Both the position numbers and the translations under genes were made by a program. Shown piece by piece: positions 4,737 through 46,123 of a DNA stretch of 48,791 bases. The stretch is from positions 1 through 48,791 of the IMG/VR virus record IMGVR_UViG_3300036940_000563; one strand, given 5' to 3'. How positions within the stretch are numbered: the first letter of the stretch is position 1; every line of letters starts with the position of its first letter. This stretch comes from a virus. Lineage: Duplodnaviria; Caudoviricetes. The notes beneath the pieces are model-generated. The model was not told the DNA's origin. It saw only the letters and a list, made by a program, of their open reading frames with translations, and made no database searches.

Positions 4737-5441
4737 CTAGATATATGTGTCGTAGTATTCTATTAGGACATTAGAAACTGTACCGGTTATTAAAAGTTCA
4801 GAGCTTCCCGGAGGTATTTTAATAAAATCTCCAGAGTGAATATCCAACTTGTTTTCCTTTAAATCGTTGTAAACTAAATATCTTTTACTATCTAAGGTAA
4901 TCTTTTCTGTTAATCCAGTTAGATTTAGAATCTTATCATCTAATGTTAAAAAAATATCTCCCGTTCCAGTAACTGATATTATTGTTTCTGCTTCTTCTGT
5001 TCCATCATTTATTAATGTTATACTTGTAGGATTATCTACACTAATGCTTTTAAAGGTTCCAAGCTGAAAAGGTTCGGTTTCAAATACAACCTTAAAGTTT
5101 TCTACAACCTGATTTAGTGACAGATCTATACCACTTACTGTTCTTACCACCCTGTATGTCTTGTCACTTTCACCGTCAAGGATGAGATCTCCTGTTCCAG
5201 AAAGCCAGAAGGCTATTTCCCTTGCTCTTTGTCTTCTGCTTTGGATTGTTCTTTTTATTAAGCTGCAGTCAAACTCCAGTGTTTTATTGTTATATCCATC
5301 TTCAAATATATACTGACCGTTTCTTCCGGGAACAGTCATTCTTTCAAATCTCTTTGATGGTATCAACTGATTATTGTCAGTCTTTACTATTAGTCCTTCA
5401 AATTCTCTTGAATGTTTTCCTCTATATGTAAAACCTATCAT
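4737..5441 (-). CDS. Distal tail protein (Dit)
   Basis: Follows TMP; FTYRGKHS, VPGRNG and FETEPF motifs. Confidence 0.85.
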   Translation of the reverse strand: MIGFTYRGKHSREFEGLIVKTDNNQLIPSKRFERMTVPGRNGQYIFEDGYNNKTLEFDCSLIKRTIQSRRQRAREIAFWLSGTGDLILDGESDKTYRVVRTVSGIDLSLNQVVENFKVVFETEPFQLGTFKSISVDNPTSITLINDGTEEAETIISVTGTGDIFLTLDDKILNLTGLTEKITLDSKRYLVYNDLKENKLDIHSGDFIKIPPGSSELLITGTVSNVLIEYYDTYI

Positions 5442-7609
5442 GTAAGTGCAACCCCTCTTTCATTTCTTCTTTGCAGGAGATACAGCTCTCTTGCTATGTT
5501 TTTTATGTCGCTGTCTTTTCTTACTGTCATATTTGCTATATTAAAGTAGTTTTGTGTGCCGGTTCCTTTTACTAAATCATTTCTGCCTAAATTAGCGTCT
5601 ATGTTAAATGATGTAGGTATGGTCCTGCTCATCTGGTTTTCAACATCCTTCATGGATTTGGTAAATCCTTCACCTATGCCTTCACTCATGTTGGCACCTA
5701 TACCTGCAAATACTTTGGAAGGAGAATTAATTCCCAGCACGTTTTTTACACCATTTACAATTCCACCTACCATGTTGTCTACCTTTCCTTTAAGCCATCC
5801 AATCATAGAAGATATGCCTTCCCATAAGCCTTTGGATATGTTTTTTCCTACATCTTTCACAGAAGGAATGCCTTTTGTAAATCCGCCGACTATTGATGTA
5901 ATTATCTGTGGAAGCTGAGCTACAAGTTGAGGTATTGCACTGATTAGTCCTGAAGCTAACTGAAGAGTTATCTGAACTCCCATGTTAATTATGGTCGGAA
6001 GATTGTTTGTTATAAATAGTATTATACTGTTTATGATCTGAGGAAGTGCTTCTATTAAAGTAGGCAGTGAGTTTAAAAGTCCCTGGGTCAGTCCGTTTAT
6101 AATCTGAAAGGCTGCATCAAGGACAAGGTCTAAGTTGTTAATTAAAGTTTCAACTATTAATATAACCGCTTCTACCATTGAAGGTACAAGTTCCGGTAGC
6201 GATAACCCTATTCCTTCACTTAAAGCTTTAACTAACATTATTGCTGCTTCTATTAATAGGGGCAGGTTATCTATTAGTGTCTGTATAATAGTCATTACTG
6301 CTTCTACTCCTGCAGGGATAAGTTCGGGAAGTAAGCTAAGTAATGTTCCTAGTACCTGACTGAATAAATCAGTTACTGTAGTTAATAAAAGAGGTAACAG
6401 TTCTCCAATAGCTAATATAATTCCATCCATTGCCGGAGGTAGAGCAACCACTATATTTTCAATGATAGGCACTATATTTTCTACTACCGACTGAAAGGCG
6501 TCTACTAGATTTTCAGTTAGATTAGTCATATCAGCATCTGCATTTCCAAGGCCAGCTGTAAAAGATCCAAGAGCTGCTTGCAAAAGCCCTATGGAACCAG
6601 TAACTGTTTGAGTAGATTCCTTGGCAAAGTTTCCGGCATACTGCTCAGTGTTTTCAAAGAACATCTGCATAGCAACTTGGGCTTTCTCAGCTTGTGTAGC
6701 ACTTGCCCATGTAAAGTCCAGACCCTTAGCTAAGGCATAGGCTTCAACACTAGTGGCATTCATAGCAACTCCCAGATTATCCATCATTGTAAAGTTACCT
6801 TTAGCTGCTCCTGCTACGGAATCGAGGGCCATCTGCATGTCAATCCCCATAACAGAAGCCATATCAGCTGCCCTTTGCATAGCTTTTTCTGTAAGTTCAA
6901 GACTTTTTTCCTGGTCAACTCCAGAACCTTGAAATAGGGCACCCATTTTATTTGCTGTAGCAAGATACTGACTTTGAGAAACTCCCAGATTTTTATATGC
7001 TTCTTCTCCAGTCTTTTGAATGGAATCTGCATACTCACCGAATACTGCTTCAGAGCCGCCTAAGTTCTGCTCAAGCTCCCCGAACTGCTGAACTACTTCC
7101 TTGCCTATTTTAACTGCAGCTGCTCCTGCTGCTAAAGCAACAGAACCCATGGCAAGACCCATGCCTTTTAGAATGCCGCCCATATTCTCAAACTTGCTTC
7201 CTGCATCTTCAGCAGCTTTTCCAGATTTCTCTAGATTTTCTCCTAGATCCTTAGCTTCCTTAGCCGATTCGTCCAGTTCTCTTTCCATTTTGTTAAGGTC
7301 AGCATTTGCATAGTTTAATTGTGTCCTCCAGGCTTTAGTTCTCTTGTCATTTTCTCCAAAGGAATCAGAAGCATTCTTTAGTGCTGATTCTAAAGTTTTA
7401 ATCTTGTTCTTCTGGGCATCTATCTCTTTATTCAACACTTCATTTCTGGCAGTCACAGCTTGGATAGACTTGTCCTGTTTGTCAAACTGAGATGTTACCA
7501 GTTTCATTTCCGAGCCTAAAACCTTAAAATCTCTGTTTATTTCTCTCAAGGCATTCTTGAATTCCTTCTCACCTTCAAGACCAATCTTTAAACCAAAATT
7601 ATCAGACAT
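5438..7609 (-). CDS. Tape measure protein (723 aa)
   Basis: MSDNFGLKIGLEGEKEF start, coiled coil, ~11-aa hydrophobic repeats, LGINSPSKVF motif. Confidence 0.92.
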   Translation of the reverse strand: MSDNFGLKIGLEGEKEFKNALREINRDFKVLGSEMKLVTSQFDKQDKSIQAVTARNEVLNKEIDAQKNKIKTLESALKNASDSFGENDKRTKAWRTQLNYANADLNKMERELDESAKEAKDLGENLEKSGKAAEDAGSKFENMGGILKGMGLAMGSVALAAGAAAVKIGKEVVQQFGELEQNLGGSEAVFGEYADSIQKTGEEAYKNLGVSQSQYLATANKMGALFQGSGVDQEKSLELTEKAMQRAADMASVMGIDMQMALDSVAGAAKGNFTMMDNLGVAMNATSVEAYALAKGLDFTWASATQAEKAQVAMQMFFENTEQYAGNFAKESTQTVTGSIGLLQAALGSFTAGLGNADADMTNLTENLVDAFQSVVENIVPIIENIVVALPPAMDGIILAIGELLPLLLTTVTDLFSQVLGTLLSLLPELIPAGVEAVMTIIQTLIDNLPLLIEAAIMLVKALSEGIGLSLPELVPSMVEAVILIVETLINNLDLVLDAAFQIINGLTQGLLNSLPTLIEALPQIINSIILFITNNLPTIINMGVQITLQLASGLISAIPQLVAQLPQIITSIVGGFTKGIPSVKDVGKNISKGLWEGISSMIGWLKGKVDNMVGGIVNGVKNVLGINSPSKVFAGIGANMSEGIGEGFTKSMKDVENQMSRTIPTSFNIDANLGRNDLVKGTGTQNYFNIANMTVRKDSDIKNIARELYLLQRRNERGVALT

Positions 7610-7637
7610 ATATCATCACCTCCTCATTTAAGGCATG

Positions 7638-7664
7638 AAAAAAGACACCTCTTTTGAAGTGTCT
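7638..7664 (-). terminator. Intrinsic terminator upstream of the TMP gene
   Basis: AGACACTTC-AAAA-GAGGTGTCT followed by a T run. Confidence 0.75.
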
Positions 7665-7695
7665 GTAATATATAAATATATTATTAATTTCAAAA

Positions 7696-7767
7696 TTATT
7701 ACCCGCGTTCTTACCCGAATTCTTACCGGCATTCTTACCGGCGTTCTTACCGACATTATTACCGACA
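7696..7767. repeat. 6 x 12-bp imperfect tandem repeat
   Basis: ttattacccgcg/ttcttacccgaa/ttcttaccggca/ttcttaccggcg/ttcttaccgaca/ttattaccgaca. Confidence 0.9.
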
Positions 7768-7821
7768 TTCTTGATAGAATTAGTTATTGAAGAATTGATC
7801 TTTAAAAAAATTAACGCATTT

Positions 7822-7906
7822 GAAAACTCTCTTTAATCTCTCTTAAGACATTTTAAAATTCTTTTTCTACTTCAACAACTATTTTCAGTTCAAAATTATC
7901 AGACAT
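7822..7906 (-). pseudogene. Degenerate second copy of the TMP 5' end
   Basis: Translates MSDNFELKIVVEVEKEF*NVLREIKESF versus TMP MSDNFGLKIGLEGEKEFKNALREINRDF. Confidence 0.85.
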
Positions 7907-8097
7907 ATAAACTCATCTCTTTTTTGAAGTGCTTGTAATATAACATTATCTATTTATAATGTAACATCACTATTGTTACATAGAAAGTCTAAAAAGTTAC
8001 ATTTAAAATTATATTTGTCTTTCATGCTAAAAACATTTTTAGATTTAGCACAATTGTCAAATCACACAATTACTCTTTATTTTCTTGATTCCATAAT

Positions 8098-8967
8098 TCA
8101 AGAAATAGTCTCGTATTTAGGCTTAAGCTTATTGTACTCTACCTTGAATTCATCATCTTTTAATAATTTATCTTTGATTTCTTCAATATTTACACAAGGT
8201 TTACTAGGGTAGTTACAAAAATCTCTTATAACACATCTGTCGCATTTTGGATTTGCTGTGCATATTTCACCATATCCATCAGCGCAGTAGCTCCATAAAA
8301 CAATGTCGAGATAAGATTTCAGATATCCTGTATTCTTGGCAATAGTATCAAATATTTTTATTACTTCTATCTCGGATGCTATACTAGAGTTGGAATATCC
8401 TAATCTATCATCGCCCAATATTCTCCTCATATGAAGGTCAGGCTTTGCTCCATCTATTCCTACATGTCTTAAGAACTCCCAAGCAAGAGCATAACCGATA
8501 TACTTTAATTTATATTTACCTTTTGATATAATCTTTGCTATCTTGTCAGCTGGATACTCTTCATAAAAATTATCAAGACTTCCATAATCTTTTTCTATCT
8601 TCTCAAGAATATGAATATCATAAGATAATGACTCCATCTGCTTTTTTGTTGACACGTTTCCACACCTTAATTCAAATATTCCATCGTAGAAATATTCTGC
8701 AGGAGTAGATAGTATCTTGTTTTTATCATATTGAAAAAATAACTTATCAATGTTTCTTAACTGGGGTGCTACATCTTTCCACTTCCTCTGATTACCGAGA
8801 AAAGCATAAATTAAAGCTTTTATATTGTCCTCAAAGCTAAATATTTTACCTTCTTTTCTTGCCTTTATATTTCTTATCAAGTCATGATTCTCAAAATCAA
8901 TATTGTTTTCTATTAAATACTCTACCACTTTATCGATTATTGCCTTATCCTTCACTTTTTCCATCAT
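8098..8967 (-). CDS. HhH-GPD superfamily DNA glycosylase-like protein with EndoIII-type 4Fe-4S motif (moron)
   Basis: LKYIGYALA...GIDGAKPDLH HhH-GPD-like motif; C-x6-C-x2-C-x5-C (CTANPKCDRCVIRDFC). Confidence 0.72.
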   Translation of the reverse strand: MMEKVKDKAIIDKVVEYLIENNIDFENHDLIRNIKARKEGKIFSFEDNIKALIYAFLGNQRKWKDVAPQLRNIDKLFFQYDKNKILSTPAEYFYDGIFELRCGNVSTKKQMESLSYDIHILEKIEKDYGSLDNFYEEYPADKIAKIISKGKYKLKYIGYALAWEFLRHVGIDGAKPDLHMRRILGDDRLGYSNSSIASEIEVIKIFDTIAKNTGYLKSYLDIVLWSYCADGYGEICTANPKCDRCVIRDFCNYPSKPCVNIEEIKDKLLKDDEFKVEYNKLKPKYETIS

Positions 8968-9020
8968 AATCCCCCACTATAGTAATTTATGGTAAATGAC
9001 CGACAAATATATTCAAACTA

Positions 9021-9049
9021 ATTCTAACAGTATGGGGATTGATTTGCAA
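9021..9049 (-). promoter_or_regulatory. SigA-type promoter of the glycosylase moron
   Basis: TTGCAA-17 nt-TAGAAT with extended -10 TG. Confidence 0.65.
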
Positions 9050-9054
9050 TCAAA

Positions 9055-9264
9055 TTAAATTCCATATGGAACTAAATCATCAATAAAATATTCCCTTCTC
9101 GGTTTTGAGATACCAATAAACTGCTTATGGCATTCCCAAAGGTCCATAATATATCCAATAGGCATAAGCCACACCTCATCTTCTTTTCTGTTTAAGTGTA
9201 CTGTTCCGTAATAAATAAGTCGGGTAAATAATTCATCATCACTTACCCGACTACTTGGTTTTTT
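9055..9264 (-). CDS. Tail assembly chaperone -1 frameshift extension (gpGT-like)
   Basis: Slippery A AAA AAC at 9258-9264; the -1 frame reads ...PSSRVSDDELFTRLIYYGTVHL...DDLVPYGI*; 15-bp hairpin at 9218-9252. Confidence 0.85.
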   Translation of the reverse strand, partial: KKPSSRVSDDELFTRLIYYGTVHLNRKEDEVWLMPIGYIMDLWECHKQFIGISKPRREYFIDDLVPYGI

Positions 9265-9653
9265 GAGTCTTCACTTATCACTTCTCTTCTAGTTCCCTTC
9301 ATCATACTTGCCATTATAGCATTCTTGTAGTTTGCCAAATCAAAAGGTGTAGTAAGAACTTCAACTTCTTCTTCCTTTAACAAATCTTTTTTATCATCCT
9401 TGTTTTTTATGTTATGAATTAGAATAGATTGATTTGCCAGCAGGGTTATAAGCCATATGATTTCATCTAGGGCCAGTTCAAAGTTTTCAGTTTTCATCAG
9501 CTTGTCACCTAGTTTTTCAAGACCCCCATATCTTTTTGATATTTCCTTTGTAGCCCTGGTGGTTAGGATCAGTTTGTATTCCTTATCTCCTATTTTTATA
9601 ATAGAGCTTCTTTCTTCCGATACATCATCTATCTTTATATTATCATCTGACAT
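9243..9653 (-). CDS. Tail assembly chaperone (gpG-like)
   Basis: Between major tail protein and TMP; ends at the slippery site. Confidence 0.85.
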   Translation of the reverse strand: MSDDNIKIDDVSEERSSIIKIGDKEYKLILTTRATKEISKRYGGLEKLGDKLMKTENFELALDEIIWLITLLANQSILIHNIKNKDDKKDLLKEEEVEVLTTPFDLANYKNAIMASMMKGTRREVISEDSKNQVVG

Positions 9654-9666
9654 TTATTTACCTCCA

Positions 9667-10527
9667 TTATGATACCGTTACTGTAGCTACATTAGTTGTT
9701 ACGTCACTGGCTCCAGATAAACTAAGAACACAGTAGTAATAATAACTTCCTACAGTTAAGTCTATTGGAATATCAAAACTTGCAGATATTTCACCAGTAA
9801 TTACTGTTCCGCCAGATGCACTATCTATTGTATTCTCATACCACTGATAAGTAATAGGATCGCTGGTGTTTGACTCAGCAACTACAGAAAGACTTCCTGT
9901 AATGCTCCCGTATGTAACTTCTGTTAAAGTTTCAGGTTGAGTAGTAATAGTTATAGCCGGTGTTATTGGTGTGAAGTCCGGTTCATAAACATTACCAAAC
10001 CATCCGGTAATTATTGAAGCTGCTACACCGTTATCCCCTTCAGTAACCTCTGCCTTCCAAGGGTGCTTGTTTTCTCCATCTATTTTATTTCTTCTAAATA
10101 CCATTCCCTCTATGGTGGGACTGCTGAATGTAATAGAGTCTCCCTTGGTGGCAAGGCTAGTTGATGGAACATTGAATATAACCCTGTAAAGCCAAAAGTA
10201 GCGATACTTTCCATTAGCTTTCTTTGCACGAAACCCTATGGCTACAGGATTACCTCCATCCTCACTTCTTGATACGATTACGTTATTGCTGTCTATCTTA
10301 CATCCTGTCAAATCCTGTGCTACCAGTGAACCTATATCATCTATTCCCAAGGTCAATGATCCACTCTTAAATTCCTTAACTACCTCTGATGCTCCATCAT
10401 CTGCATAGAGAATCGCTTCAATAAGTTCAATGCTAAGTTCTGCAGTCATAGCCTTTGCTAAAACCTTAGGTGCAGCGTAGGTTTCATTTCCACTTGAATC
10501 TTCTGTTATAGTTGCATAGTATAGACT
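9667..10527 (-). CDS. Major tail protein (phi13 family) exon 2, with C-terminal Ig-like domain
   Basis: In frame from the intron 3' junction: SLYYATITEDSSGNETYAAPKVLAKAMTAELS...; C-terminal TTQP...YQWY...YYYCV; spliced product 293 aa. Confidence 0.92.
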   Translation of the reverse strand, partial: SLYYATITEDSSGNETYAAPKVLAKAMTAELSIELIEAILYADDGASEVVKEFKSGSLTLGIDDIGSLVAQDLTGCKIDSNNVIVSRSEDGGNPVAIGFRAKKANGKYRYFWLYRVIFNVPSTSLATKGDSITFSSPTIEGMVFRRNKIDGENKHPWKAEVTEGDNGVAASIITGWFGNVYEPDFTPITPAITITTQPETLTEVTYGSITGSLSVVAESNTSDPITYQWYENTIDSASGGTVITGEISASFDIPIDLTVGSYYYYCVLSLSGASDVTTNVATVTVS

Positions 10528-13001
10528 GTAGAGTAGGAAAGAACCGCCTTACCGTCTTTCGATGGCAGGTTTGTCCAGTCCTCTCTCCGAACCGCGCTTA
10601 CCCCTCTCGAAGTACACGGCTCTCCATTGTTCTTCAATTTTAGAAAACTCATCATTTTGGGTGGTGAATATTTTGGTGGCACTGATGGCAAACAACAAGC
10701 GTTTTTCTTTTCTTTGAAATCATAGCACGTTCCCAAAGCTCCTTACCTTTAAGGTCTTTTACTTTGTGAATATGGTGAATTTCATATTTCCCTGCGCCTG
10801 TTTTACCGCACAATTCACATATATCCGCATTTAACCGTTTATCAAAAGTGTTTCTGTTATAACCAATTGTAACTGCTGCTTTTGTTACGGTATCAGTTGC
10901 ATTTGCACCCTTGCAATTGGTGTATTTTGCGAAATACATAAGTTTCTTACCTGCTTTTGTTTCATAAGGAATAGCCCACGAACCTTTACCGTCCTTAAAC
11001 TTTTCCTTAATCTTCGTAATGCGGGTTTTGTGCTTTGTTGCCAGCGTTTTCAGACAACTATATTCCATTAAATAGTTAAAGTAATTTAAGTCGCTAAAAT
11101 TACTTGCTAAGGAATAATAGTTGCATATACCACGTAGTTCGGCATTAAAAATGGTGATGATTTCCAAATCGGTGGAGTTCCTGAGTGGCACTCTGCTAAT
11201 CGGAAACATCTCATCGCATTTCTTTTGCCTAACAATGCCTTTTGAAAACAGAAACTTGCTGATTTTATCCTTGGGTATGAGCAATTCCACTTTGTTGTTA
11301 AGCGTTCTTTGTGTGGGTCGCCCTTTTCCATGGGGTTTAATCGAACTATTCCTGCGGATACTAACATCATAGCCGAGAAAACGCGCTTTTTCTGAACTGT
11401 GTGTAATAAGAGTTTTTTCATCGCTGAGTTCCATTTTCAGCGTTCCGCTGATAAACTCAGCCAGTTTTCTCTTGATTTCCACACAATCCTCACGGTTTCC
11501 CTTAACGGCGATTAGAAAATCGTCAGCATAACGAATATATTTGATTTTCTTGTCGTCCTGCGGAGTATATGGGGTTCTCATCATTTCTGCTCTCACTTGT
11601 TTATATTGTTTGAGCAAGTCCTGCTTTTCTTCCCCGTCCGCACAATCAATCAGCTTTTTCAGTTTGACCCTCTGTGTGAACAAACGATTATACTCCTTTG
11701 TCCTTACAGTTTCATTGGGCTTGTCAAATTCTGATTTCAGCGTCATCACAAACTTATCCAGTTCGTGCAAGTAGATATTGGCGAGTAATGGCGAAATAAT
11801 TCCGCCCTGCGGCGTACCGCTATAAGTGTTGTTATACTGCCAGTTTTCCACAAAGCCCGCTTTTAAGAATCTGTAAATCAGCTTAATCAGCCTTGCGTCT
11901 TTGATTTTCTGGTTGATAAACCCTACCAATACGGCGTGGTCAATATTATCGAAACAACCTTTAATATCTCCCTCAACAAACCACTTAGCCCCTGTAAACT
12001 CCTTTTTGAGAGTTGAGAGAGCCGTGTGGCAACTTCTTTTCAGGCGAAAACCATGAGAGCAATTTAGAAATACTGGTTCATACACTGCTTCCATGACCAT
12101 TCTTAAAACTTCTTGGACGAGTTTGTCCGTGAAAGTTGGTATCCCGAGTGGTCGCATTTTGCCGTTTGCTTTTTTGATATAGGTTCGCCTTGCGGGCTTC
12201 GGCTTATAGGTTCCATCAGCAAGGGAAGCGATAATTTTATCTATCTTTTCCTTGCTGAACCCGTCTGCGGTGTCGTTATCAACGCCATTTGTTGCCGCTC
12301 CGCTGTTAGCATACAAATTCTTGTACGCCTCATACCAAATATCTTGACGCAAGAGGTAGCGATAAAGCCTTGTAAAGACTTCTTCACTGTTTTTCGATGA
12401 ATTTTCCTTAATGCTTGCTAAAATTTCCATTGTTGGTTTCATTTTGAGGTTTTCCTCCCTAATCAATTTTCATTTTAGTACAGAACAACTGCGTCCCTTC
12501 GCCTTTATGACGGCGTTACCGCCCCTGACTACTACGAACGCTCCGTAACCTTGCGGAATATTCAAACCCTTAGAGGTCATAGCCTTACGGCGTTTCCGTT
12601 TAGGTTATCCCCAGTTAGCATGATGTGTTGGAAATTGTGGATTCTCGGTTTTGCTTTCGTTTCGTTAAAACAGGTTCTCCTGCTCGTTGCGCAAATTATT
12701 GATAACAATAAGAGTCAAGATACTCCTCTTATTTGTCTTTGCGCCATAGGTTTCAGGCACTTTCCTATGTCCAATCGGAACGGATACTTGAAACTCACAT
12801 TCGGTAAATATAACCTAAACCTTATATCCACTTTACCTTGCAGTTCAGTCGTGTTATATTGCCTTAAACAACTTACTGCTTTCCTGCCATGCTCTGTTCC
12901 CGTGTCAGCTTTCGCTTTTCGGTTAGGCAGGTGGTTTACCGCGTTATCTTACGGTGTAGTTCCCACACTACAAAACAACATCATGCCCTATCTGGGCGCA
13001 C
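10528..13001 (-). mobile_element. Group IIA intron, Ll.LtrB-like (2474 nt)
   Basis: 5' GTGCGCCCAGATAGGG; domain V GAGAGCCGTGTACTTCGAGAGGGGTAAGCGCGGTTCGG (~10588-10624); domain VI with bulged A, 3' end ...CCTACTCTAC; removal restores the tail ORF. Confidence 0.97.
10652..12442 (-). CDS. ltrA: Group II intron RT/maturase with HNH endonuclease domain
   Basis: MKPTMEIL start, RPLGIP, GTPQGG, YADD, C-terminal CELC...HH...CHQCH; resembles LtrA; GGGAGG RBS. Confidence 0.95.
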   Translation of the reverse strand: MKPTMEILASIKENSSKNSEEVFTRLYRYLLRQDIWYEAYKNLYANSGAATNGVDNDTADGFSKEKIDKIIASLADGTYKPKPARRTYIKKANGKMRPLGIPTFTDKLVQEVLRMVMEAVYEPVFLNCSHGFRLKRSCHTALSTLKKEFTGAKWFVEGDIKGCFDNIDHAVLVGFINQKIKDARLIKLIYRFLKAGFVENWQYNNTYSGTPQGGIISPLLANIYLHELDKFVMTLKSEFDKPNETVRTKEYNRLFTQRVKLKKLIDCADGEEKQDLLKQYKQVRAEMMRTPYTPQDDKKIKYIRYADDFLIAVKGNREDCVEIKRKLAEFISGTLKMELSDEKTLITHSSEKARFLGYDVSIRRNSSIKPHGKGRPTQRTLNNKVELLIPKDKISKFLFSKGIVRQKKCDEMFPISRVPLRNSTDLEIITIFNAELRGICNYYSLASNFSDLNYFNYLMEYSCLKTLATKHKTRITKIKEKFKDGKGSWAIPYETKAGKKLMYFAKYTNCKGANATDTVTKAAVTIGYNRNTFDKRLNADICELCGKTGAGKYEIHHIHKVKDLKGKELWERAMISKKRKTLVVCHQCHQNIHHPK

Positions 13002-13022
13002 ATCCAGTCCGATTGTTGCCAT
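13002..13022 (-). CDS. Major tail protein exon 1 (MATIGLD)
   Basis: ATG GCA ACA ATC GGA CTG GAT after an AAGGGAG RBS, directly abutting the intron GTGCG. Confidence 0.93.
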
Positions 13023-13041
13023 ATTTCATTTCTCCCTTCGA

Positions 13042-13389
13042 TTAAATACTCAAATCATAAACTTTCGCCGCATCAACAGCGAAGTGGTGAAAACCGGTAT
13101 CCTCTTCATACCCTATATACCTTCTATCAGTAATGGTAAAGTCTGAACTTAGCAGTATCGATACCACTTCATTTTTTCTTGTTTGATAATTGCCTTTTGA
13201 AAATAAGGAGAGACGAACTTCCTGCAGTTCTGCTCTAGGCAGATCATCAGCATAATGTTCGAAGATATCACTCATAGGAATCAATACTATATACTCATCC
13301 GGTGGTTTATTGCTAAAGACACCGGTTTCTATAGGAATTCCCAAAGGTTCAAGGACCTCACTTATATCTTTCAAAATACTTTGATGCAT
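13042..13389 (-). CDS. Tail terminator / completion protein
   Basis: Position before the major tail gene; YEEDTGFHH motif. Confidence 0.75.
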   Translation of the reverse strand: MHQSILKDISEVLEPLGIPIETGVFSNKPPDEYIVLIPMSDIFEHYADDLPRAELQEVRLSLFSKGNYQTRKNEVVSILLSSDFTITDRRYIGYEEDTGFHHFAVDAAKVYDLSI

Positions 13390-13409
13390 TCCATTAGCCC
13401 TCCTTCTTT

Positions 13410-13841
13410 TTAGATTTTATTTATCTCTTCATCCAGCTTCCTTTTCATTGTTTCAATACAGGCTTTTCTACTGGCTGTTTTTGCCGGTTTTAAAAAAGGC
13501 TTAGCCGGTTGTCCGGATTTGCCGTACTCTATGATGTTGGCTAGTTTTGCATTAGATTCTCCATCTTTTCTGGGCTCGTCAAAACCTACCTTTACGTTAT
13601 AATTACCCTTATTGTCAACTCCTGCTGGTGATACACCTAAGGCATCTGCCAGCTCTCCAGTGGATCTAGAAGGTTCCTTCGTATCTTTCCCTATAACCGA
13701 CTGAAGGTTTGATTTAACTTTGGCTTTCACCACTTCTCCGCCTTCTTTTAATACCTTGGGAATAATTTCATCAGTTTTGCCAGCTAAAGTTGAAACTTTT
13801 AAAAGAAAGTCTTCCGGCATTTTGTAGCTTGATCTGACCAT
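13410..13841 (-). CDS. HK97 gp10-family neck protein
   Basis: STGELADAL, EYGKSGQPAKPFLKPA. Confidence 0.85.
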   Translation of the reverse strand: MVRSSYKMPEDFLLKVSTLAGKTDEIIPKVLKEGGEVVKAKVKSNLQSVIGKDTKEPSRSTGELADALGVSPAGVDNKGNYNVKVGFDEPRKDGESNAKLANIIEYGKSGQPAKPFLKPAKTASRKACIETMKRKLDEEINKI

Positions 13842-13852
13842 GAAATCACCTC

Positions 13853-14182
13853 CTAGTCCTTGGCAGCTTCAATCTTTTCTGCTGCTATTTCTATATATAT
13901 TCCTCTGATGATTTCCACACTAATTATCTTGTATTCTACAGCGCCGCATCTTACAAGCATACCCGGTTCAATGGAAATCCCAGGAATCTTTCTCAGTTGA
14001 AATGTGGCATTGGCTTTGGTATAGGCAGCCATATTAGCCCACTTTCTAGAACCGTGCTGTTCTTCTTTATATGCCCTAACACTGGCGATCACCTCTTCTC
14101 CCTTGGAAGAAAATCCTTCATCGTCTTTTGCCGATACCGTGTCTATTATGTCTATTATGGTGTTCATCTTCCCAAAGCTCAT
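13853..14182 (-). CDS. Head closure / head-tail adaptor
   Basis: MSFGKMNT...DDEGF; position. Confidence 0.8.
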   Translation of the reverse strand: MSFGKMNTIIDIIDTVSAKDDEGFSSKGEEVIASVRAYKEEQHGSRKWANMAAYTKANATFQLRKIPGISIEPGMLVRCGAVEYKIISVEIIRGIYIEIAAEKIEAAKD

Positions 14183-14300
14183 CGCCGTCACCTGCCTTTA
14201 ACAGTTTCTCATCATATCCACTGTTCCTGTTTCTTCTTCTGCCTTTTCGGTAGCATCTTTTCTGATGTTTTCTTCTATTCTTTATCCACAGTCTTTTCAT
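14118..14300 (-). CDS. Possible Arg/Lys-rich small protein (60 aa)
   Basis: ATG overlaps the connector stop (TGATG); MKRLWIKNRRKHQKRCYRKGRRRNR; 3' part overlaps head closure out of frame. Confidence 0.4.
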   Translation of the reverse strand: MKRLWIKNRRKHQKRCYRKGRRRNRNSGYDEKLLKAGDGDELWEDEHHNRHNRHGIGKRR

Positions 14301-14608
14301 CAAACCTGCCACTCCTTTCCCATTCGAAGAAGCAAATGAACCGTCTTCCACACCTGTTCCGAAGCTCTGACATCGTCGTTGAAAAACCCTCCTGTTGATC
14401 CGTCTCTACTTTCATAAAAGTGAGAAGCAAGCATGACAACTCCCTGTTCTGTGGTCGGTGACATGGTGTTTAACTGATAGTAGTCCTTCCCAAGGTGCTG
14501 AAAACCTTCCGCGTAGCTTACAGCGGCGGCAATATATCCTTCAACAAGAGCATCATCTTCCAAGTGGTCAAGGATTAGATTTGCTTTTACCTTATCAATA
14601 AGTGCCAT
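14300..14608 (-). CDS. Head-tail connector (gp6-like)
   Basis: KVKANLILDH.EDDAL, SHFYESRD. Confidence 0.88.
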   Translation of the reverse strand: MALIDKVKANLILDHLEDDALVEGYIAAAVSYAEGFQHLGKDYYQLNTMSPTTEQGVVMLASHFYESRDGSTGGFFNDDVRASEQVWKTVHLLLRMGKEWQV

Positions 14609-14614
14609 TGTTTA

Positions 14615-14839
14615 TCACACGCTTTCCATCAATCCGGCAGCTTTTAGTTTGATGAGCAAAGAATTAAAATCCGTAACTAGAGCCGCTACATCTACTGCAG
14701 TGCTTTCTACTTGAACTGCAGCAGGTTTTAATTCTGTTCCATTAAAGGTTATTTTGCCTTCAGCTGCTACTTCAAGTTCACCGCCGATTACAGTTTTATC
14801 GCCGCCCTGTTGGGTATAGTTTTTAGTATTGTATCCCAT
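14615..14839 (-). CDS. Head fibre / decoration protein
   Basis: After capsid; DFNSLLIKLKAAGLM motif. Confidence 0.65.
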   Translation of the reverse strand: MGYNTKNYTQQGGDKTVIGGELEVAAEGKITFNGTELKPAAVQVESTAVDVAALVTDFNSLLIKLKAAGLMESV

Positions 14840-14902
14840 AGTTTTTCCTCCTTATAAAAATTAAAGAAAGGCATCCTGTTGACTACCTCCCTGTAGATTT
14901 TA

Positions 14903-16096
14903 CTAAGCTTTCTGTTGAAGAACCTTTATTGCTTCTGTAAGAATCAGTTTTCCGTCAAGTCTTTGAGATGCCAAGAATCCTACCTGACCGTTGGCTGCAT
15001 AAAGTTCGTTCAAGCGTTTAAAGGTTCTACCCTGACGATCTGCAATCCAGTAGTATTTAAAGTCTCCAAAGACAATGGATTTCTCTCCGGCAGCAGCTGT
15101 CGGCATGTACTGTGAAGTTACTACCGGTCTATTTAAAATAGTGTCAGGCGTTCCCGAAGTAAGAGAAGGCTGCCACAGATACTGTCCCTGACCGTCTTTA
15201 AGTTTTCTAAGCTTTTTAATGGTATCGTCGTTCACAAGAAAAGATGCATTTTTCCTGTAAGAGGACTTAAGGCTGTGGTAAAGATCAAGTACCTCATCAA
15301 TTAATATAGCAGTAGTTCCCGCAGCAGTAACTCCTAATCCGGCTCCACCGGTGGCATTCAATAGTCCTGTCGGCTTTGCTGTACCGTTTCCTGTAAGAAA
15401 GGCCTCCTCTTCAGCAGCACCAATTCTTCTAGCAAACTCTGCTGCTATATATGCTTCTAAATCAAAGTAGCTGTCGTTTAGAAGCTCATCAGAAACTTTA
15501 AGCATAGTCCCCAGCTTATATGCAGATAAGGTTACCTGAGTGAATGCATCATCACTTTCAGTAAAAGCTGCTTCTTCATCCATCCATGCCGCTGATCCTT
15601 GACTTGCTACTACAGGAATTTTTCTGTCTCCGTAGCTGGTAGTAATAACGTTGCACATATTTCTTAGGACGTTGGCTTCTTGAAGAGCCTTTATAAGTTG
15701 ATGTTCATACTCATCCGGCACTAAAAATCCGCCTTCTGAATCTGTGCCAATCTGCAGTGCGTTTTGTACCGATGGATTCATCTTGTTTCTCATAGCACCC
15801 CAGAAAGCATTTTTATATGAATCAGATGCTCTTCCAGTTTTTTCTTCAGTCATCTTCTCAGGTCTTGAAGCAAGAGGTTTGCTTATGGCTGCTGAAAATT
15901 CTCTGTCCATAGCCTCCTGTCTCTCAAGGCGCTCAATTTCATTGCCTAGGTTAACCACTTCATCTTCCATCTTTTCGTATACTGCATTGTCTTCTGGTTT
16001 GATCAGACCGTTCTCCTGACGATGTTCATCTAGGAATATCTTAGCCTGCTCCCAAACCTTAGCCCGTTGTTCTCTTAGTTCTTGAATTTTACTCAT
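14903..16096 (-). CDS. Major capsid protein, HK97 fold
   Basis: Coiled-coil delta domain, GGFLVP, FGDFKYY. Confidence 0.95.
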   Translation of the reverse strand: MSKIQELREQRAKVWEQAKIFLDEHRQENGLIKPEDNAVYEKMEDEVVNLGNEIERLERQEAMDREFSAAISKPLASRPEKMTEEKTGRASDSYKNAFWGAMRNKMNPSVQNALQIGTDSEGGFLVPDEYEHQLIKALQEANVLRNMCNVITTSYGDRKIPVVASQGSAAWMDEEAAFTESDDAFTQVTLSAYKLGTMLKVSDELLNDSYFDLEAYIAAEFARRIGAAEEEAFLTGNGTAKPTGLLNATGGAGLGVTAAGTTAILIDEVLDLYHSLKSSYRKNASFLVNDDTIKKLRKLKDGQGQYLWQPSLTSGTPDTILNRPVVTSQYMPTAAAGEKSIVFGDFKYYWIADRQGRTFKRLNELYAANGQVGFLASQRLDGKLILTEAIKVLQQKA

Positions 16097-16101
16097 ATTC
16101 A

Positions 16102-16917
16102 TTACCTCCAATTTTTAATCAGCTCCAGCCTTCTTTCAAGCTGGGCGATAGGGATTAGTTTTGTTTCTTCTGGTGTTTCTTCCTTTGATTCTTTAACCTG
16201 TGGTTCAGATGCCATACTCTTTTCCGGATCCTTTGTTTCATCTTCATTTGCCTTTAGATACTTCATCCTGGCCTGGATTCCGGGGAGTTTGTTTCTCAGT
16301 GCATTGGTTACAGTCATCTGGTCAAAAATAAAGCCTTCAGCCATTTCATCTGCCGGTTCTGATTCGTATAAAATTTTGTCGGCAAAATTAAGTTCAATAG
16401 CCTTGTGGGCACTCATCCAAGTTTCAGCATCCATCATGTGTGAGATTTTCGCTCTGGATTGTCCCGTCTTTGTTTGATAAGCATTGATGATACTTTCTTT
16501 TACTTCGCTTAAGAGATTAATTCCCACCTGAAGATCCGCCACCTCTCCGGCAATTAGCATGGCTGGATTATGAATCATAATTACTGATAAAGGAGAAACA
16601 CATACCTCATCTCCCGCCATTGCAATTACAGAAGCCGCACTAGCTGCAAGACCGTCAATATGAACACTGATATTTCCTGGATACTCTTTAAGCATGTTGT
16701 AAATCTGTGCTGCGGCAAAGGTGTCTCCTCCCGGCGAGTGTATCTTTACAACTATGTCCTCATTTTCAGGACCACTGTCATAAAGCTCTGTCTTAAACTG
16801 TTTAGGGGTGATATCGTCATCAAACCAAGATGACTCTGCAATATATCCTTCAAGGTGCAGGGTTCTTACAGTTGACTCTTCAGCTTCATTCACCACCCAG
16901 CGCCAAAATTTATCCAT
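16102..16917 (-). CDS. ClpP-type prohead protease
   Basis: IHSPGGD, GLAASAASVI, MIHNP, ETWMSA. Confidence 0.93.
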   Translation of the reverse strand: MDKFWRWVVNEAEESTVRTLHLEGYIAESSWFDDDITPKQFKTELYDSGPENEDIVVKIHSPGGDTFAAAQIYNMLKEYPGNISVHIDGLAASAASVIAMAGDEVCVSPLSVIMIHNPAMLIAGEVADLQVGINLLSEVKESIINAYQTKTGQSRAKISHMMDAETWMSAHKAIELNFADKILYESEPADEMAEGFIFDQMTVTNALRNKLPGIQARMKYLKANEDETKDPEKSMASEPQVKESKEETPEETKLIPIAQLERRLELIKNWR

Positions 16918-16941
16918 TAAATCTACCTCCTTTTTTGGCAT

Positions 16942-16972
16942 AAAAAAAGCACTTCCCTTTTTGAGAAATGCT
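16942..16972 (-). terminator. Intrinsic terminator between portal and protease
   Basis: AGCATTTCTC-AAAAA-GGGAAGTGCT followed by a T run. Confidence 0.65.
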
Positions 16973-17016
16973 GTTGTTACTTAGTATTAAATTTTTAAAA
17001 TATTCCAATTATACAT

Positions 17017-18255
17017 TTATTCTTCAGGCTTCTCACCACCTTCACCCATTGCCTTCTTTGCATAAGCCCCGGCCATCTTAAGAGGTAGCATGTTTCCGTT
17101 GATAAGATATAGATCTCCACCATCTTTTTCAGAAATAGGATCCATATTCTCCATCCTTCTTACATCATTGACTGAAAAGAATCCGTTCTGAATACCGATG
17201 GAGTAACCATCCATTCTTGATTTGTAGTCTCCCCGCATTAGTGCTGATGCATTAAAGGACACAAAGCACTGACCTTTTTCTTTTTCAAGAAAGAGCCTTT
17301 TGTTCATAGCTTGTTCTAATCTTACCAGCCATGGTCTTATAGTATGAACCACAAAACTTATGGATTGATTCTCTATGTTGCTGAATGAACTCTTGCTGAG
17401 ATCCGCCACCATATGAGGAGGAACTTGAAAGATTCTACAGATCTCTTCAATCTGAAACTTCCTTGTTTCTAAAAACTGAGCATCGGAGTTTGGCATGCTT
17501 ATGGGCTGATACTGCAGGCCGTCTTCAAGGACTGCAACTCTATTGCTGTTGCTGCTTCCTCCATAAGCTGTCTGCCAAGCATCTCTTACCTTAGTAGGAT
17601 CTTTAATAGTACCAGCAGTTGATAAAATACCACTTGGTGTTGCGTTGTTGGCGAAGAACCTTCCTCCGTATTCTTCAGCTGCAATATTTAGTCCTATTGC
17701 ATTTTTCGCAAGAGCCACCGGTGAATATCCCATCACCCCGTCAAACCCCAGTCCCGGAATATGAAGAATATCTTCAGGACCTAAATAGTGGGTTGCTCTA
17801 TCTTTATTGTAGGCATAGTATAGATTGCCATTCTTGTCTCTATCCACCGTCATCCTATCCGGAAGCAGTGGATATAGATGCATAACTTCTCCTTTTCCGT
17901 TTCGAATGATCTGGCAGTAGGAATTACCCCAAAGGAGAATATGAGTCATCATAGTTTCCCTTAAGGTAAAGGAAGTCATCTCCGGATTAGGCTCATCGTG
18001 GAGCAACTTATATAGAGGATGAGCATACATCTTTTCCTTTCCGTCACCTTTGTACTGATAAGTATGAAGAGGTAAAGATGCTACCGTCTCTGCTATGATT
18101 CTCACACAGGCAAATACGGCAGTAGTTTGCATGGAACTTCTTTCGTTTACAATTTTCCCTGATATGCTTTGTCCCATGTAAAAGACAGGAGCGCTGCTGA
18201 CACTATCTGTCGGTTCTGCCCTTGCCTTGAAAAGCCATTTAAATAAATTTGCCAT
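17017..18255 (-). CDS. Portal protein, HK97 family
   Basis: VFACVRIIAETVASLP, DAQFLETRKF, NDVRRMENM. Confidence 0.95.
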   Translation of the reverse strand: MANLFKWLFKARAEPTDSVSSAPVFYMGQSISGKIVNERSSMQTTAVFACVRIIAETVASLPLHTYQYKGDGKEKMYAHPLYKLLHDEPNPEMTSFTLRETMMTHILLWGNSYCQIIRNGKGEVMHLYPLLPDRMTVDRDKNGNLYYAYNKDRATHYLGPEDILHIPGLGFDGVMGYSPVALAKNAIGLNIAAEEYGGRFFANNATPSGILSTAGTIKDPTKVRDAWQTAYGGSSNSNRVAVLEDGLQYQPISMPNSDAQFLETRKFQIEEICRIFQVPPHMVADLSKSSFSNIENQSISFVVHTIRPWLVRLEQAMNKRLFLEKEKGQCFVSFNASALMRGDYKSRMDGYSIGIQNGFFSVNDVRRMENMDPISEKDGGDLYLINGNMLPLKMAGAYAKKAMGEGGEKPEE

Positions 18256-18380
18256 AAGTTTATACCTCCAAAATTTGCATAATAAAAGCACACATTTTCA
18301 TGAGTGCTCTAATCTTATTATTTAATTTCTTACCTGCTTATTATTTTTTCTAAATCCAAAATTCTCAGTTGCTTTTTAAA

Positions 18381-19898
18381 CTAAATCTTACTTTCTAATT
18401 TTTCTTTTCTTTTAATAAACTCGCTATTGTCTACTCCAGCATTATTGTAATAAACTATAGCTTTTTCACATACGGAGATTGCTTTTTCATAATCTTTATT
18501 CTTTTCATGAATTATTGCTAGTCTTTTAAATGCTGGTATGGTTACTGGATATCCTTTGTAAATATTTTCTTTTTCTTCTTTTATTTCCTTCTTAGAAAGA
18601 TACTTTGAAGATTGTTTTAGTCTTTTTAACTCTGTATCCATATATGCTTGTTGAAAATCATTTAGTGTTTTAAGATCATCTTCGCAGTATTTGATGCATT
18701 CATCTACATACTTATCATCTATTTTTCTATATTTATAATAAAATTTTTGCAGCTCTATATAGGTATAATGTCTACTAAAAGGATCATTGAAATTCTTTTT
18801 AAGATCCTTTAAAAGTCTTTTTTCTTCTTTTTCGTCAAAAACTAAAACTTCTTTTTTAGTTGCTTTTTTATTTTTCTTAACTTCTGGAGCTTTTCCTTTC
18901 TTCCTAAGCTCTACTAGTTTTTCTTTTACTGTTTCATGAGTTTTTATTAAAATATCATTGAATGTTTTCTTAAGCTTAAATGATTCAGAAATTAAAGGTG
19001 TTTTAATTTTTTTATCTGAAATTGATATATTTGCAAACATTGGTATATTTTCATTTCTAAGTTTCTTGAATTCTTTTTCGCTCAGTAAATCACTTATTTT
19101 AATGCTATTATCACCAAATTCATCAGAAAGTATTTCATTCATAGTCTCATCAAACAAATTTGGATACTTTTTAATATAATTATTATTAGTAAATTCAAAA
19201 GTTTTTGCAAGTCTTGTTATATCCTTTGAATAAATAGGAATATCAAAGCTATAAGCACTTAACAAGAATAAGTTGTCAGAGAAATTCAATTCATAATCTT
19301 TATCAAGAGATTTAATAAATTTCAACATCATATCTGGTCTCTGGTGATATAAGCAAGATAAAACTAATGCATTACCAGAATATGACTGAAAAGATGAATT
19401 TTCATGAACATCTCGCAACTTTAATATTACTTCAAATGCTTCTACAAATTTATCAGTTAATAAAAATCTTTCTAATCCATAATATAGTAAGAATACATAT
19501 CCAATCTCAAAATGTTTATTGTAAGGATTTGATAAGAATTTTAAGTATGCTCCTCTTTGCTCAGGATCGATTCCTTCATAAGATGGATAATATGGTAGTT
19601 TTTTAACCTTACTACTACTATTTAATTCCGATATGGTTAAATTAGTATCTATAAGACTAGGCTCAATGTCTGTACTCATAGAAAATTCAATGGTAAATTC
19701 ATATCCTCCGGCATTAAATTTTTCACTGTTAATATTTTTTTTACTTTCAAAGTTTTTTCTTGGTCCGTTTTTAAACCAAAGCAAATTTTTAATATCCTCG
19801 TGTATAGAGTATTTAACTATATCTAAACTGTTTGAAGTTGATACTAATTCTTTTACTTTTGATTTACCTTTCTTTTTCAATAAGTCAAATAATCCCAT
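18381..19898 (-). CDS. TerB N-terminal-domain protein with TPR-like C-terminus (moron)
   Basis: YYPSYEGIDPEQRGAYLKFL...IGYVFLLYYGLER matches the TerB_N pattern; AT-rich; inserted between terL and portal. Confidence 0.7.
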   Translation of the reverse strand: MGLFDLLKKKGKSKVKELVSTSNSLDIVKYSIHEDIKNLLWFKNGPRKNFESKKNINSEKFNAGGYEFTIEFSMSTDIEPSLIDTNLTISELNSSSKVKKLPYYPSYEGIDPEQRGAYLKFLSNPYNKHFEIGYVFLLYYGLERFLLTDKFVEAFEVILKLRDVHENSSFQSYSGNALVLSCLYHQRPDMMLKFIKSLDKDYELNFSDNLFLLSAYSFDIPIYSKDITRLAKTFEFTNNNYIKKYPNLFDETMNEILSDEFGDNSIKISDLLSEKEFKKLRNENIPMFANISISDKKIKTPLISESFKLKKTFNDILIKTHETVKEKLVELRKKGKAPEVKKNKKATKKEVLVFDEKEEKRLLKDLKKNFNDPFSRHYTYIELQKFYYKYRKIDDKYVDECIKYCEDDLKTLNDFQQAYMDTELKRLKQSSKYLSKKEIKEEKENIYKGYPVTIPAFKRLAIIHEKNKDYEKAISVCEKAIVYYNNAGVDNSEFIKRKEKLESKI

Positions 19899-19926
19899 CT
19901 AATCCACCTTCCTTACTTTTGCCACT

Positions 19927-19955
19927 ATTATATAACATCAGATATTATTTGTCAT
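19927..19955 (-). promoter_or_regulatory. SigA-type promoter of the TerB-N moron
   Basis: ATGACA-17 nt-TATAAT. Confidence 0.7.
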
Positions 19956-19989
19956 ATTAATAAGGAATGTGAATTTTGTATTTGAGCAT

Positions 19990-21543
19990 TTATAATACTA
20001 TCATATCTCTCTTATCATAAATAGATCCATCATCCTCCGGTGGATTTACTGCAGCCCTTGCAAGACCCATAATCATAGCCACTATTCCATCAATCTTTTC
20101 TGAGGATTTTTCTTTGTCTACTTTTATGTTTCCTGCCGGGTCTCTTCGAACCACTATGTTGTCTGCCATCCACCTAAGAACGGGATGTCCTCCATGAGCA
20201 ATCTGCTTACTTAGAATTAATCTCATTAAATCCTTTGTAGGCGGTGACATATCCTTAAAACCCTGACCGAAGGGCACTACTGTAAAGCCCATACCTTCTA
20301 AGTTTTGACTCATCTGTGTTGCTCCCCACCTATCATAGACAATTTCCCTTATGTTGTACTTCTCTCCCAGGTTTTCGATAAACTTCTCGATAAATCCGTA
20401 GTGGACCACATTACCTTCAGTAACATTTAAAAGTCCCTGTCTGTGCCAGATATCGTATGGAACTCCGTCTTTTTTTACTCTCTGGTGTAGTGTCTCCTCA
20501 GGCAACCAGAAGTATGGAAGGACCTGATACCTGCCTCCTTCCTCTAAAGGTGGGAAAACCAAGACAAAAGCCGTGATATCGCTGGTTGAGGATAGGTCCA
20601 GACCTCCGTAGCAAACTCTTCCTTTAAGCTCTTCTGGGTCTACTGGGTAATTGCAAAGATCCCACTTGTCCATAGGCATCCATTTGATTTCCTGCTTCAA
20701 CCACATGTTCAGTCGTAGTTGTTTAAATAGAGCAAGATCTGCCGGATCATCTTTAACTTGATTATAGTGTTCCCTTACTCTTTCTATAGTAATGGTATGG
20801 CCGAGGCTTGGGTTGGCCTTTCGCCAGTTCTTTTCATTTTCAATATCAGCATCATCATCCAGTCCGTAGATGATGGATAGAAATGTAGGATTGATTCTTT
20901 TACCTTCTAAAATATTTTTAGCCTTCTGATGCATCTCCCAACCGTAACCGGAGAGTTGGTTTCCAGCAGTGGTTAGATACAAAAACAAGGGCTGGGTTCT
21001 GGCATCTCCTGAGCCGGTGGTCAGCATCTTAGCAAGGTCCGGATTAGGATAGGTCCAAATTTCATCTAAGATAACGCAGGATGCATTGATTCCGGATTTT
21101 GATTTAACATCGGAACTTAGGACTTGATAGAAACTTCCTGTCTTTGGATAAACAATTCGTTTTGTAGACCTTACCAGATTGGTTACTTTTGTTAAGGTAG
21201 GATTTCCTTCTACAAAGTTAACGCTTGTATTAAAGATTATACTGGCCTGCTGTCTGTCACAAGCTGCCACATAAACTTCTGCATTAGGTTCACCATCAGC
21301 TAAAAGCATGTATAGGGCAATGGCTGCTCCGAGCTCACTTTTTCCATTTTTCTTACCTATCTCTACATAAGCAGTTCTATACTGTCTTGTTCCATCTTCT
21401 CTTAAAGTTCCAAATAACTTCTTAACCAGGTCCTTTTCCCAGGGAAGCAATTTAAAAGGCTGACCAGCCCATCTACCTTTGGTCAGCTTCAGTTGTTCTA
21501 TGAAATTTATGGCGTGATTAGCATGAGCTTCACTAAAAGGCAT
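19990..21543 (-). CDS. terL: Terminase large subunit
   Basis: GKKNGKS Walker A, ILDE Walker B, GLDLS, KIDGIVA. Confidence 0.96.
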   Translation of the reverse strand: MPFSEAHANHAINFIEQLKLTKGRWAGQPFKLLPWEKDLVKKLFGTLREDGTRQYRTAYVEIGKKNGKSELGAAIALYMLLADGEPNAEVYVAACDRQQASIIFNTSVNFVEGNPTLTKVTNLVRSTKRIVYPKTGSFYQVLSSDVKSKSGINASCVILDEIWTYPNPDLAKMLTTGSGDARTQPLFLYLTTAGNQLSGYGWEMHQKAKNILEGKRINPTFLSIIYGLDDDADIENEKNWRKANPSLGHTITIERVREHYNQVKDDPADLALFKQLRLNMWLKQEIKWMPMDKWDLCNYPVDPEELKGRVCYGGLDLSSTSDITAFVLVFPPLEEGGRYQVLPYFWLPEETLHQRVKKDGVPYDIWHRQGLLNVTEGNVVHYGFIEKFIENLGEKYNIREIVYDRWGATQMSQNLEGMGFTVVPFGQGFKDMSPPTKDLMRLILSKQIAHGGHPVLRWMADNIVVRRDPAGNIKVDKEKSSEKIDGIVAMIMGLARAAVNPPEDDGSIYDKRDMIVL

Positions 21544-21557
21544 AGGGTATTCCTCCT

Positions 21558-22067
21558 TTAATTATCACTTTTATTTAAAATATCTTCTGCCTTTGGAACA
21601 TTTAAAAGAAGACTTTCCATTGCGTCCCCTTCTATAGTGTTTCCTGAATTGTTTATATTAAGTCTGCTTCTTGCCGATGGACTGAGTCCCAGCTCTGAGC
21701 AGAAATTTCTCATCTGTTTTAGGTTCTGCTGGGCAATGGAAACCTGAGGGATCTGCTGAATATATCCTGAAGAAGTCTTTAATATGGACCCGTGCTTTGA
21801 GATAAATTCTTCAGCCTCTTTCCATCTGGCATAAGCCTGACAGTATCCTGCAAAGGCAGCCATATCGACTCTAGTCAAAAGTCCCATAGCTTCCAGTTCT
21901 TTTGACAGCCTTCTCCATTCCTTCTTGGCATCCGGCTCAAGCCATGACGGGCACTTTGGTGCTTTTTGTTTTGGTTTAGGTTCATTTTTATTTAATGGTC
22001 TCTTACCAGGGTTACCTTCAAGCTCTTTAACTGCTGTCGGTTTTGGTGGTCTTCCCCTACCAGCCAT
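21558..22067 (-). CDS. terS: Terminase small subunit, P27 family
   Basis: GRPPKPT..KELEGNPGKR, ELGLSPSARSR. Confidence 0.93.
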   Translation of the reverse strand: MAGRGRPPKPTAVKELEGNPGKRPLNKNEPKPKQKAPKCPSWLEPDAKKEWRRLSKELEAMGLLTRVDMAAFAGYCQAYARWKEAEEFISKHGSILKTSSGYIQQIPQVSIAQQNLKQMRNFCSELGLSPSARSRLNINNSGNTIEGDAMESLLLNVPKAEDILNKSDN

Positions 22068-22137
22068 AACTTTCACCTCCTTTTTTGCAAAGAAAAAAGC
22101 CTGATTAATTATCAGACTTTAAATTAAAATTTTATTT

Positions 22138-46122: not shown

Positions 46123-46123
46123 G

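Follow-up and report, generated by a model that had tools for sequence, protein, structure and literature searches.

An Ll.LtrB-like group II intron in a phage major tail gene, most likely at its own homing site

Introduction

Ll.LtrB, which encodes the protein LtrA, is found in Lactococcus conjugative elements and targets a relaxase gene. It belongs to the ML class of group II introns (PMC8919778), and its established cycle comprises maturase-assisted splicing, reverse splicing into DNA, nicking by the HNH domain and target-primed reverse transcription (PMC12350094). Ll.LtrB also reopens spliced mRNA, lowers the mRNA of its host gene and cuts conjugation 3-4-fold (PMC6003770).

In phages, Merk, Jones and Eddy reported group II introns in coding genes in 2025 (PMC12350094). 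Their 20 curated cases include IIA introns in UvrX, SNF2/DarB and ssb genes, and among them only a minor tail protein gene (c-st; a IIB, ORF-less intron) and a terminase gene have to do with the virion. In the portions consulted, neither a homing series nor an intron in a major tail, portal, capsid or protease gene is described; four contigs with the intron described here stand in its Table S2, which has no host-gene column, as bare RF00029 hits (PMC12350094). Splicing-dependent virion proteins, one of them high-copy, are known from the LittleE capsid and BAKA tail introns, for which N-terminal sequencing and RT-PCR gave the proof; as the LittleE case makes clear, splicing can be tolerated even in the high-copy capsid gene of a phage (PMC3706429). 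Unlike the intron described here, these two cases are probably group I, are LAGLIDADG-type or ORF-less, and form no retrohoming radiation (PMC3706429). The 'Hiding and hijacking' analysis of group II neighbourhoods places introns in mobile elements with expression timed with host functions and mentions 'some phage-related proteins', while its accessible part contains no site-specific targeting of late operons (PMC7306698). Our search of mostly open-access papers returned no description of this intron, nor of a series of such introns in late genes.

Results

We analysed a 48,791-nucleotide stretch, hereafter the window, which is the IMG/VR virus record IMGVR_UViG_3300036940_000563 (Duplodnaviria; Caudoviricetes). 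This 48.8-kb record combines a replication module with a late module, terminase to tail, on the minus strand; lysis and integrase genes are absent from the contig, which stops before them. The late module from terminase to tape measure (5438..22076, minus strand) appears intact and provides the frame for most of the related insertion sites discussed below. The major tail gene lies between the tail terminator gene upstream (13042..13389, minus strand) and the tail assembly chaperone gene downstream (9243..9653, minus strand). It belongs to the phi13 family of major tail proteins (TIGR01603, PHROG 88), as judged from this position and from a profile match that begins at residue 1 of the intron-free protein.

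The major tail (tube) gene is split by a group IIA intron of 2,474 nt (10528..13001, minus strand; GTGCG...AC, phase 0), as delimited by its ends, the Rfam match and a contig that omits the intron. A ribosome-binding site, GGGAG (13036-13032, minus strand), precedes the seven codons of exon 1 (13002..13022, minus strand), which contain IBS2 (13013-13009) and IBS1 (13007-13002). Exon 2 (9667..10527, minus strand) encodes the rest of the protein with a C-terminal Ig-like domain. The joined exons form one 293-aa frame with a single terminal stop, and 57 of 61 distinct intron-free tail proteins are likewise 293 aa long. The ends of the insertion follow the group II consensus (5' GUGYG, 3' AY), and RF00029 matches 10624-10528 with 54.8 bits. 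Domain V with its AGC triad (10589..10624, minus strand) is supported by this match and by folding; folding also predicts domain VI (10530..10586, minus strand) in which the branch point is a bulged A at 10534, 7 nt away from the 3' splice site. EBS2 (12774..12778, minus strand) and an 11-nt loop of the d3 stem that holds delta (12722) and EBS1 (12721-12716; together 12716..12722, minus strand) are further features of subgroup IIA, in which delta lies next to EBS1 and faces position +1 of exon 2. Taken as a whole, the 5' region of the intron is more stable than shuffled sequences (z -3.65). The ends, the Rfam match and the joined frame thus bear out the earlier note, which had placed an intact intron in sense orientation after codon 7 of the major tail gene.

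The intron carries an open, full-length frame for an intron-encoded protein of 596 aa (10652..12442, minus strand, from the ATG at 12442) with an RT domain (YADD at 11530), maturase X and an HNH domain (PF00078, PF01348 and PF21368). TIGR04416, the group II RT/maturase family, is by far the best NCBIfam family at 294.1 bits, just below its 300-bit cut-off. The protein is 61% identical to LtrA in amino acids and shares a starred clade of the RT tree with the real Ll.LtrB (L225, pFI430), so the description as Ll.LtrB-like is borne out; the tree covers this class only, and the ML label of the protein comes via Ll.LtrB. The two introns also have the same IIA ends, phase 0, EBS2, delta and EBS1 alignment columns and similar lengths (2,492 nt for Ll.LtrB). 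They differ in that Ll.LtrB has its own EBS and a relaxase target, whereas the window intron sits in a tail tube gene with a prophage as its vehicle, and their nucleotide identity is about 68%. The window RT has a rare P-to-L change in the HGFRP motif (residue 134, 12041-12043 region), where 98 of 101 relatives have P. This variant occurs with different exon-2 alleles: it is common to the window, L001, L002 and L003, the last of which shares the window's exon 2, and is absent from L004, L005, L009, L226 and L306. Between the window and L009 the RT shows 58 synonymous and 8 non-synonymous codon changes; judged by its codons, the RT is under purifying selection.

Unspliced tail RNA would be read for 13 codons to a stop. 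A start at the internal Met at 10449, which has no Shine-Dalgarno sequence at usable spacing, would lose 33 residues, and its product matches TIGR01603 only from profile position 46. Because of the early stop, the poor start and the lost part of the family match, we firmly infer from the gene itself that tube synthesis depends on splicing, as had been proposed. One contig of the RNA-labelled run X5 joins 10527 to 13002 exactly and omits 2,474 nt (GT..AC). This joint confirms the boundaries, but we rejected it as a splicing product, since the run hardly covers the intron and the joint is best read as an empty allele. Searches by sequence words matched 21 RNA runs, none with half of the words. 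Eight were examined, all as contigs: the second set of four contained no exon-exon joint, and no circle or lariat joint was seen in the eight, although contigs can exclude neither. A promoter scan gave 10 sites against 12.8 expected, no signal above chance. An essential tube N-terminus was also considered from a structure model and not used as proof: the AlphaFold2 model of the empty allele L027, with residues 2-16 and 28-38 as strands, has low confidence (pLDDT 60.5), and Foldseek returned mainly the Ig domain, with a mycobacteriophage connector entry as the top match (TM 0.28). The tube protein had no sequence match in the PDB below E 0.1.

The EBS/IBS pairing claimed in the earlier note is confirmed by alignment with Ll.LtrB. 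EBS2 pairs 5/5 with IBS2 in Watson-Crick fashion, delta pairs 1/1 as U facing the +1 A, and EBS1 pairs 5/6 with one G-U and one U-U, which gives 11/12. The U-U mismatch lies at exon position -5, which is T in 72 of 72 empty alleles; it is therefore unavoidable, and 11/12 is the best attainable score. The mean across 32 related variants is 11.1/12, as against 5.3 when permuted. Over 18 distinct sites the introns form 199 pairs with their own exons, compared with a mean of 96 and a maximum of 122 in 20,000 derangements, so the match is beyond chance. Delta co-varies with position +1 of exon 2 and is paired in 28 of 32 variants; a sister intron 78% identical to the window's (L025) is inserted at this junction too, where its delta is an A that faces a +1 T, and its EBS1 pairs 6/6. 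Non-Watson-Crick pairs occupy 25 of 54 third codon positions and 12 of 144 positions elsewhere, and the EBS base is G or U in 42 of 54 versus 76 of 144 (p 0.002, uncorrected for kinship). The +1 A, found in 8/8 occupied and 38/72 empty alleles (Fisher p 0.018), is no more than a hint of escape at this position, as it is confounded by phylogeny. Five introns in protease genes (L133, L135, L139, L114 and L175) have EBS1 and delta as in Ll.LtrB, and both kinds of host carry His-Asn/Asp codons there; these introns are distant from Ll.LtrB on the RT tree, which leaves convergence or an ancestral target.

When IMG/VR was searched with the RT, 26 loci came up, and 16 of these were 99-100% identical. 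All 14 near-identical copies with both ends (L001-L014) lie at the same tail-gene junction. L015 has the same 5' junction as the window intron, and L026 retains only the 3' 495 nt of the intron, followed by the window's exon 2. The junction recurs in the isolate Gudongella sp. SC589 (L226) and in the metagenome contig L306, and in the relatives L307 and L308 (91-92%) the intron stops at this exon-2 start too, where Lys replaces Ser. The mapping of other copies thus places every close copy with a readable flank at this junction, and none of the copies with more than 90% RT identity in the viral, genome (19 of 64 parts) and metagenome scans lay elsewhere. Intron-free alleles, which the earlier note had suggested looking for, are abundant: 72 of the closest 80 tail alleles are empty and 8 occupied, and exon 1 of the empty alleles L027 and L102 is exactly that of the window.

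The earlier note had read the EBS1 mismatch as a sign of a near-cognate site, that is, of an intron that strayed by retrotransposition into the tail gene from a true target in another gene. The mismatch itself speaks for this, given that L025 pairs 6/6, as does the fact that 8 other positions of the window reach 11/12 when G-U is counted. Given the lack of copies elsewhere in the collections scanned (19 of 64 parts for the genomes), the single copy in the Gudongella sp. SC589 genome, a score equal to the family mean and the use of the same junction by the 78%-identical sister, we regard such a stray as very improbable. Because the junction is fixed in all close copies, the -5 base is invariant and 11/12 equals the family mean, the tail-gene junction is most likely the cognate homing site of the intron.

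The introns are far more alike than the genes that carry them. Identities to the window for intron and exon 2 are 100% and 78.0% in L002, 99.92% and 77.2% in L306, and 98.3% and 76.5% in L226. The 98-100% identity of the introns does not extend into the flanks: over the first 90 nt of exon 2 it drops to about 70%, and upstream it is 57% in L226, whose prophage has a portal 56% and a TerL 58% identical to those of the window. On the tail-gene tree, occupied alleles require 6 changes, 5 of them forced by starred branches; the shuffled mean is 9.6, so they are still more clustered than in shuffles. An occupied and an empty allele, L004 and L053, share 600 identical exon-2 bases, and two empty targets, L040 and L041, occur on one contig. 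Same-site occupancy of diverged alleles, coexistence with empty alleles and the lack of flank co-transfer are the pattern of retrohoming. The suggestion that phages spread the intron appears to be right, as introns of 98-100% identity lie in tail genes of about 77%, with 6 changes on the tree and a distant Gudongella prophage among the carriers.

One alternative is that a single old insertion was passed on by homologous recombination or module exchange, or only seems to have spread because of assembly chimeras, without any retrohoming. Temperate phages are mosaic, the introns of L003 and L004 look recombinant, and many loci are short metagenome contigs, in which a repeat common to several phages can be mis-joined. 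The steep loss of identity on both sides of the intron, the occupied and empty pair with identical exon 2 and the purifying selection on the RT argue against this alternative, to which we give little weight.

We also scanned IMG/VR for the intron 5' end and obtained 121 stretches, of which 12 were dropped as chance and 109 are introns. Phage late genes host 102 of these (15 sites), six are conjugation-type, one is unclear and none is in an early gene, a 102:0 ratio that is inflated because IMG/VR favours contigs with structural genes. With genome and metagenome loci included, there are 25 sites in 12 late genes: six in the ClpP-like protease, three each in portal and major tail, two each in capsid, chaperone, chaperone extension and holin, and one each in head-tail adaptor, neck, tape measure, amidase and an XkdM-type tube. 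For four of the 25 (L200, L241, L264 and L267) the assignment depends on a single flank or on a very short one. That group II introns are uncommon in virion genes, as the earlier note held, is therefore true of the literature searched but not of the sequence collections.

In the GTDB sample (19 of 64 parts, best 80 kept, host labels assigned by hand), 48 loci among the best 80 have at least 50% RT identity: 21 are in late genes, 19 in conjugation genes, one in a probable phage helicase gene and seven in other or unknown hosts. Metagenome loci add YqaJ and Sak hosts. The RT tree, built with FastTree only and without six frameshifted or broken rows, gives no direction of switches. On it phage-late and conjugation-gene introns interleave with 9 changes (six rows relabelled; shuffled mean 27), and Ll.LtrB falls inside the starred clade that holds the window intron. 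We rejected monophyly of the phage-late introns, given 13 changes among four labels, and a phage-only clade, given the 19 conjugation loci of the 48.

Several single loci deserve description. In L380 (1380-3990) the 78%-identical sister intron interrupts a gene for a Sak single-strand annealing protein. Its 20 upstream nucleotides equal exon 1 of the L025 tail gene, and joining the flanks gives no continuous frame; either the contig is an assembly chimera or the intron carried exon sequence with it into a look-alike site. L238, in VirB4, and L144, in another frame, have near-identical RTs and different flanks, a possible ectopic insertion. L224 (PV036457.1) is a complete GenBank phage genome with a chaperone-extension intron that is annotated as a reverse transcriptase and hypothetical proteins only, and L056 combines an empty tube gene with an occupied chaperone extension. 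In the window, both sister-intron sites of the chaperone are empty, and the chaperone extension frame (to about 9054) is intact and intron-empty. A 15-bp hairpin at 9218-9252, directly after an A-run at the end of the chaperone gene, is likely a frameshift stimulator, and the site used in L056 and L146 falls inside it. The window also has extra genes of no family at 8098-8967, between chaperone and tape measure, and at 37679-38737, before polA; a TerB_N/TPR gene at 18381-19898, between terminase and portal; and at its right end (45187-48703) a HamA and helicase pair, which we take to be a Hachiman-like defence.

The introns could instead inactivate their hosts, with splicing too poor for tails and the prophages dead or dying. 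The tube is a high-copy protein, Ll.LtrB is known to depress the mRNA of its host gene (PMC6003770), gene inactivation was assumed for an intron-split helicase (PMC11318856), and the window RT has its P-to-L change. Yet both exons are in frame and full-length, and sense orientation and phase 0 hold for every one of the 32 variants examined. The prophage of Gudongella sp. SC589 looks complete: no late gene is missing, and it also has a holin, an endolysin and two serine recombinases. Two contigs (L009/L119 and L134/L135) each have two such introns in one late operon. We consider inactivation unlikely, though less so than the stray or recombination explanations. As for the genes concerned, tail tube and tape measure are both invaded in L009/L119/L120, and portal and protease in L134/L135.

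Discussion

Together, our results suggest that an Ll.LtrB-like IIA intron occupies what is likely its own homing site in diverged prophages, should make tube synthesis dependent on splicing and likely retrohomes to empty alleles. Its anatomy and pairing, the same-site occupancy, the near-identical introns in diverged hosts and the empty alleles lead to this homing reading, to which we assign a probability of roughly 85% from comparative sequence evidence.

We then propose a model for the cycle of the intron. After induction, it would be transcribed with the late operon, and its protein would fold the intron RNA and assist splicing, so that the tube mRNA is formed. EBS2, EBS1 and delta would read the codons for Ile-Gly-Leu-Asp and, beyond the junction, Ser or Lys in empty tail alleles. 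The lariat RNP would then reverse-splice into the empty allele of a co-resident or co-infecting phage, where the HNH domain would nick and the RT would copy the intron into the target. Expression with the late operon would yield RNPs when phage DNA is plentiful and cost the lysogen little. The intron would belong to a radiation in which altered EBS elements directed the ribozyme to new targets, namely conserved motifs in late genes of phages and in conjugation genes, which could be seen as the two inducible transfer operons of the mobile elements of these Firmicutes. The chemistry is that of an ordinary intron; what is unusual, and systematic, is the choice of host genes. A splicing cost to the phage, as the earlier note suggested, is plausible by analogy, since Ll.LtrB reopens spliced mRNA and cuts conjugation (PMC6003770).

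It is tempting to speculate further that late operons of temperate Firmicutes siphophages are a second, undescribed niche of the Ll.LtrB clade. In this tentative extension, at least 25 EBS-retargeted introns would home into conserved virion and lysis codons, with the RNP made when phage genomes are abundant and G or U opposite third codon positions reading synonymous alleles. Reopening of spliced mRNA might throttle virion output, and might even act in trans on co-resident prophages that lack the intron; in these, synonymous codons that escape it, such as TCT in place of AGT at +1, could be favoured. We hold this wider picture to be possible, and doubtful in its full form.

Until 2025 the prevailing view was that phages lack group II introns. 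Since these introns are known to depress the mRNA of their host genes, one would hardly expect to meet them in a high-copy virion gene. The tail gene appears to be a regular, recently invaded homing site within a pattern of 25 sites. The splicing cost to the phage, the question of whether introns cap prophage burst size, and the gene preferences of group I versus group II introns in phages can now be tested, and a cultured lysogen, Gudongella sp. SC589, carries the intron. The natural series of EBS/IBS pairs also shows how a TargeTron-type ribozyme retargets in nature.
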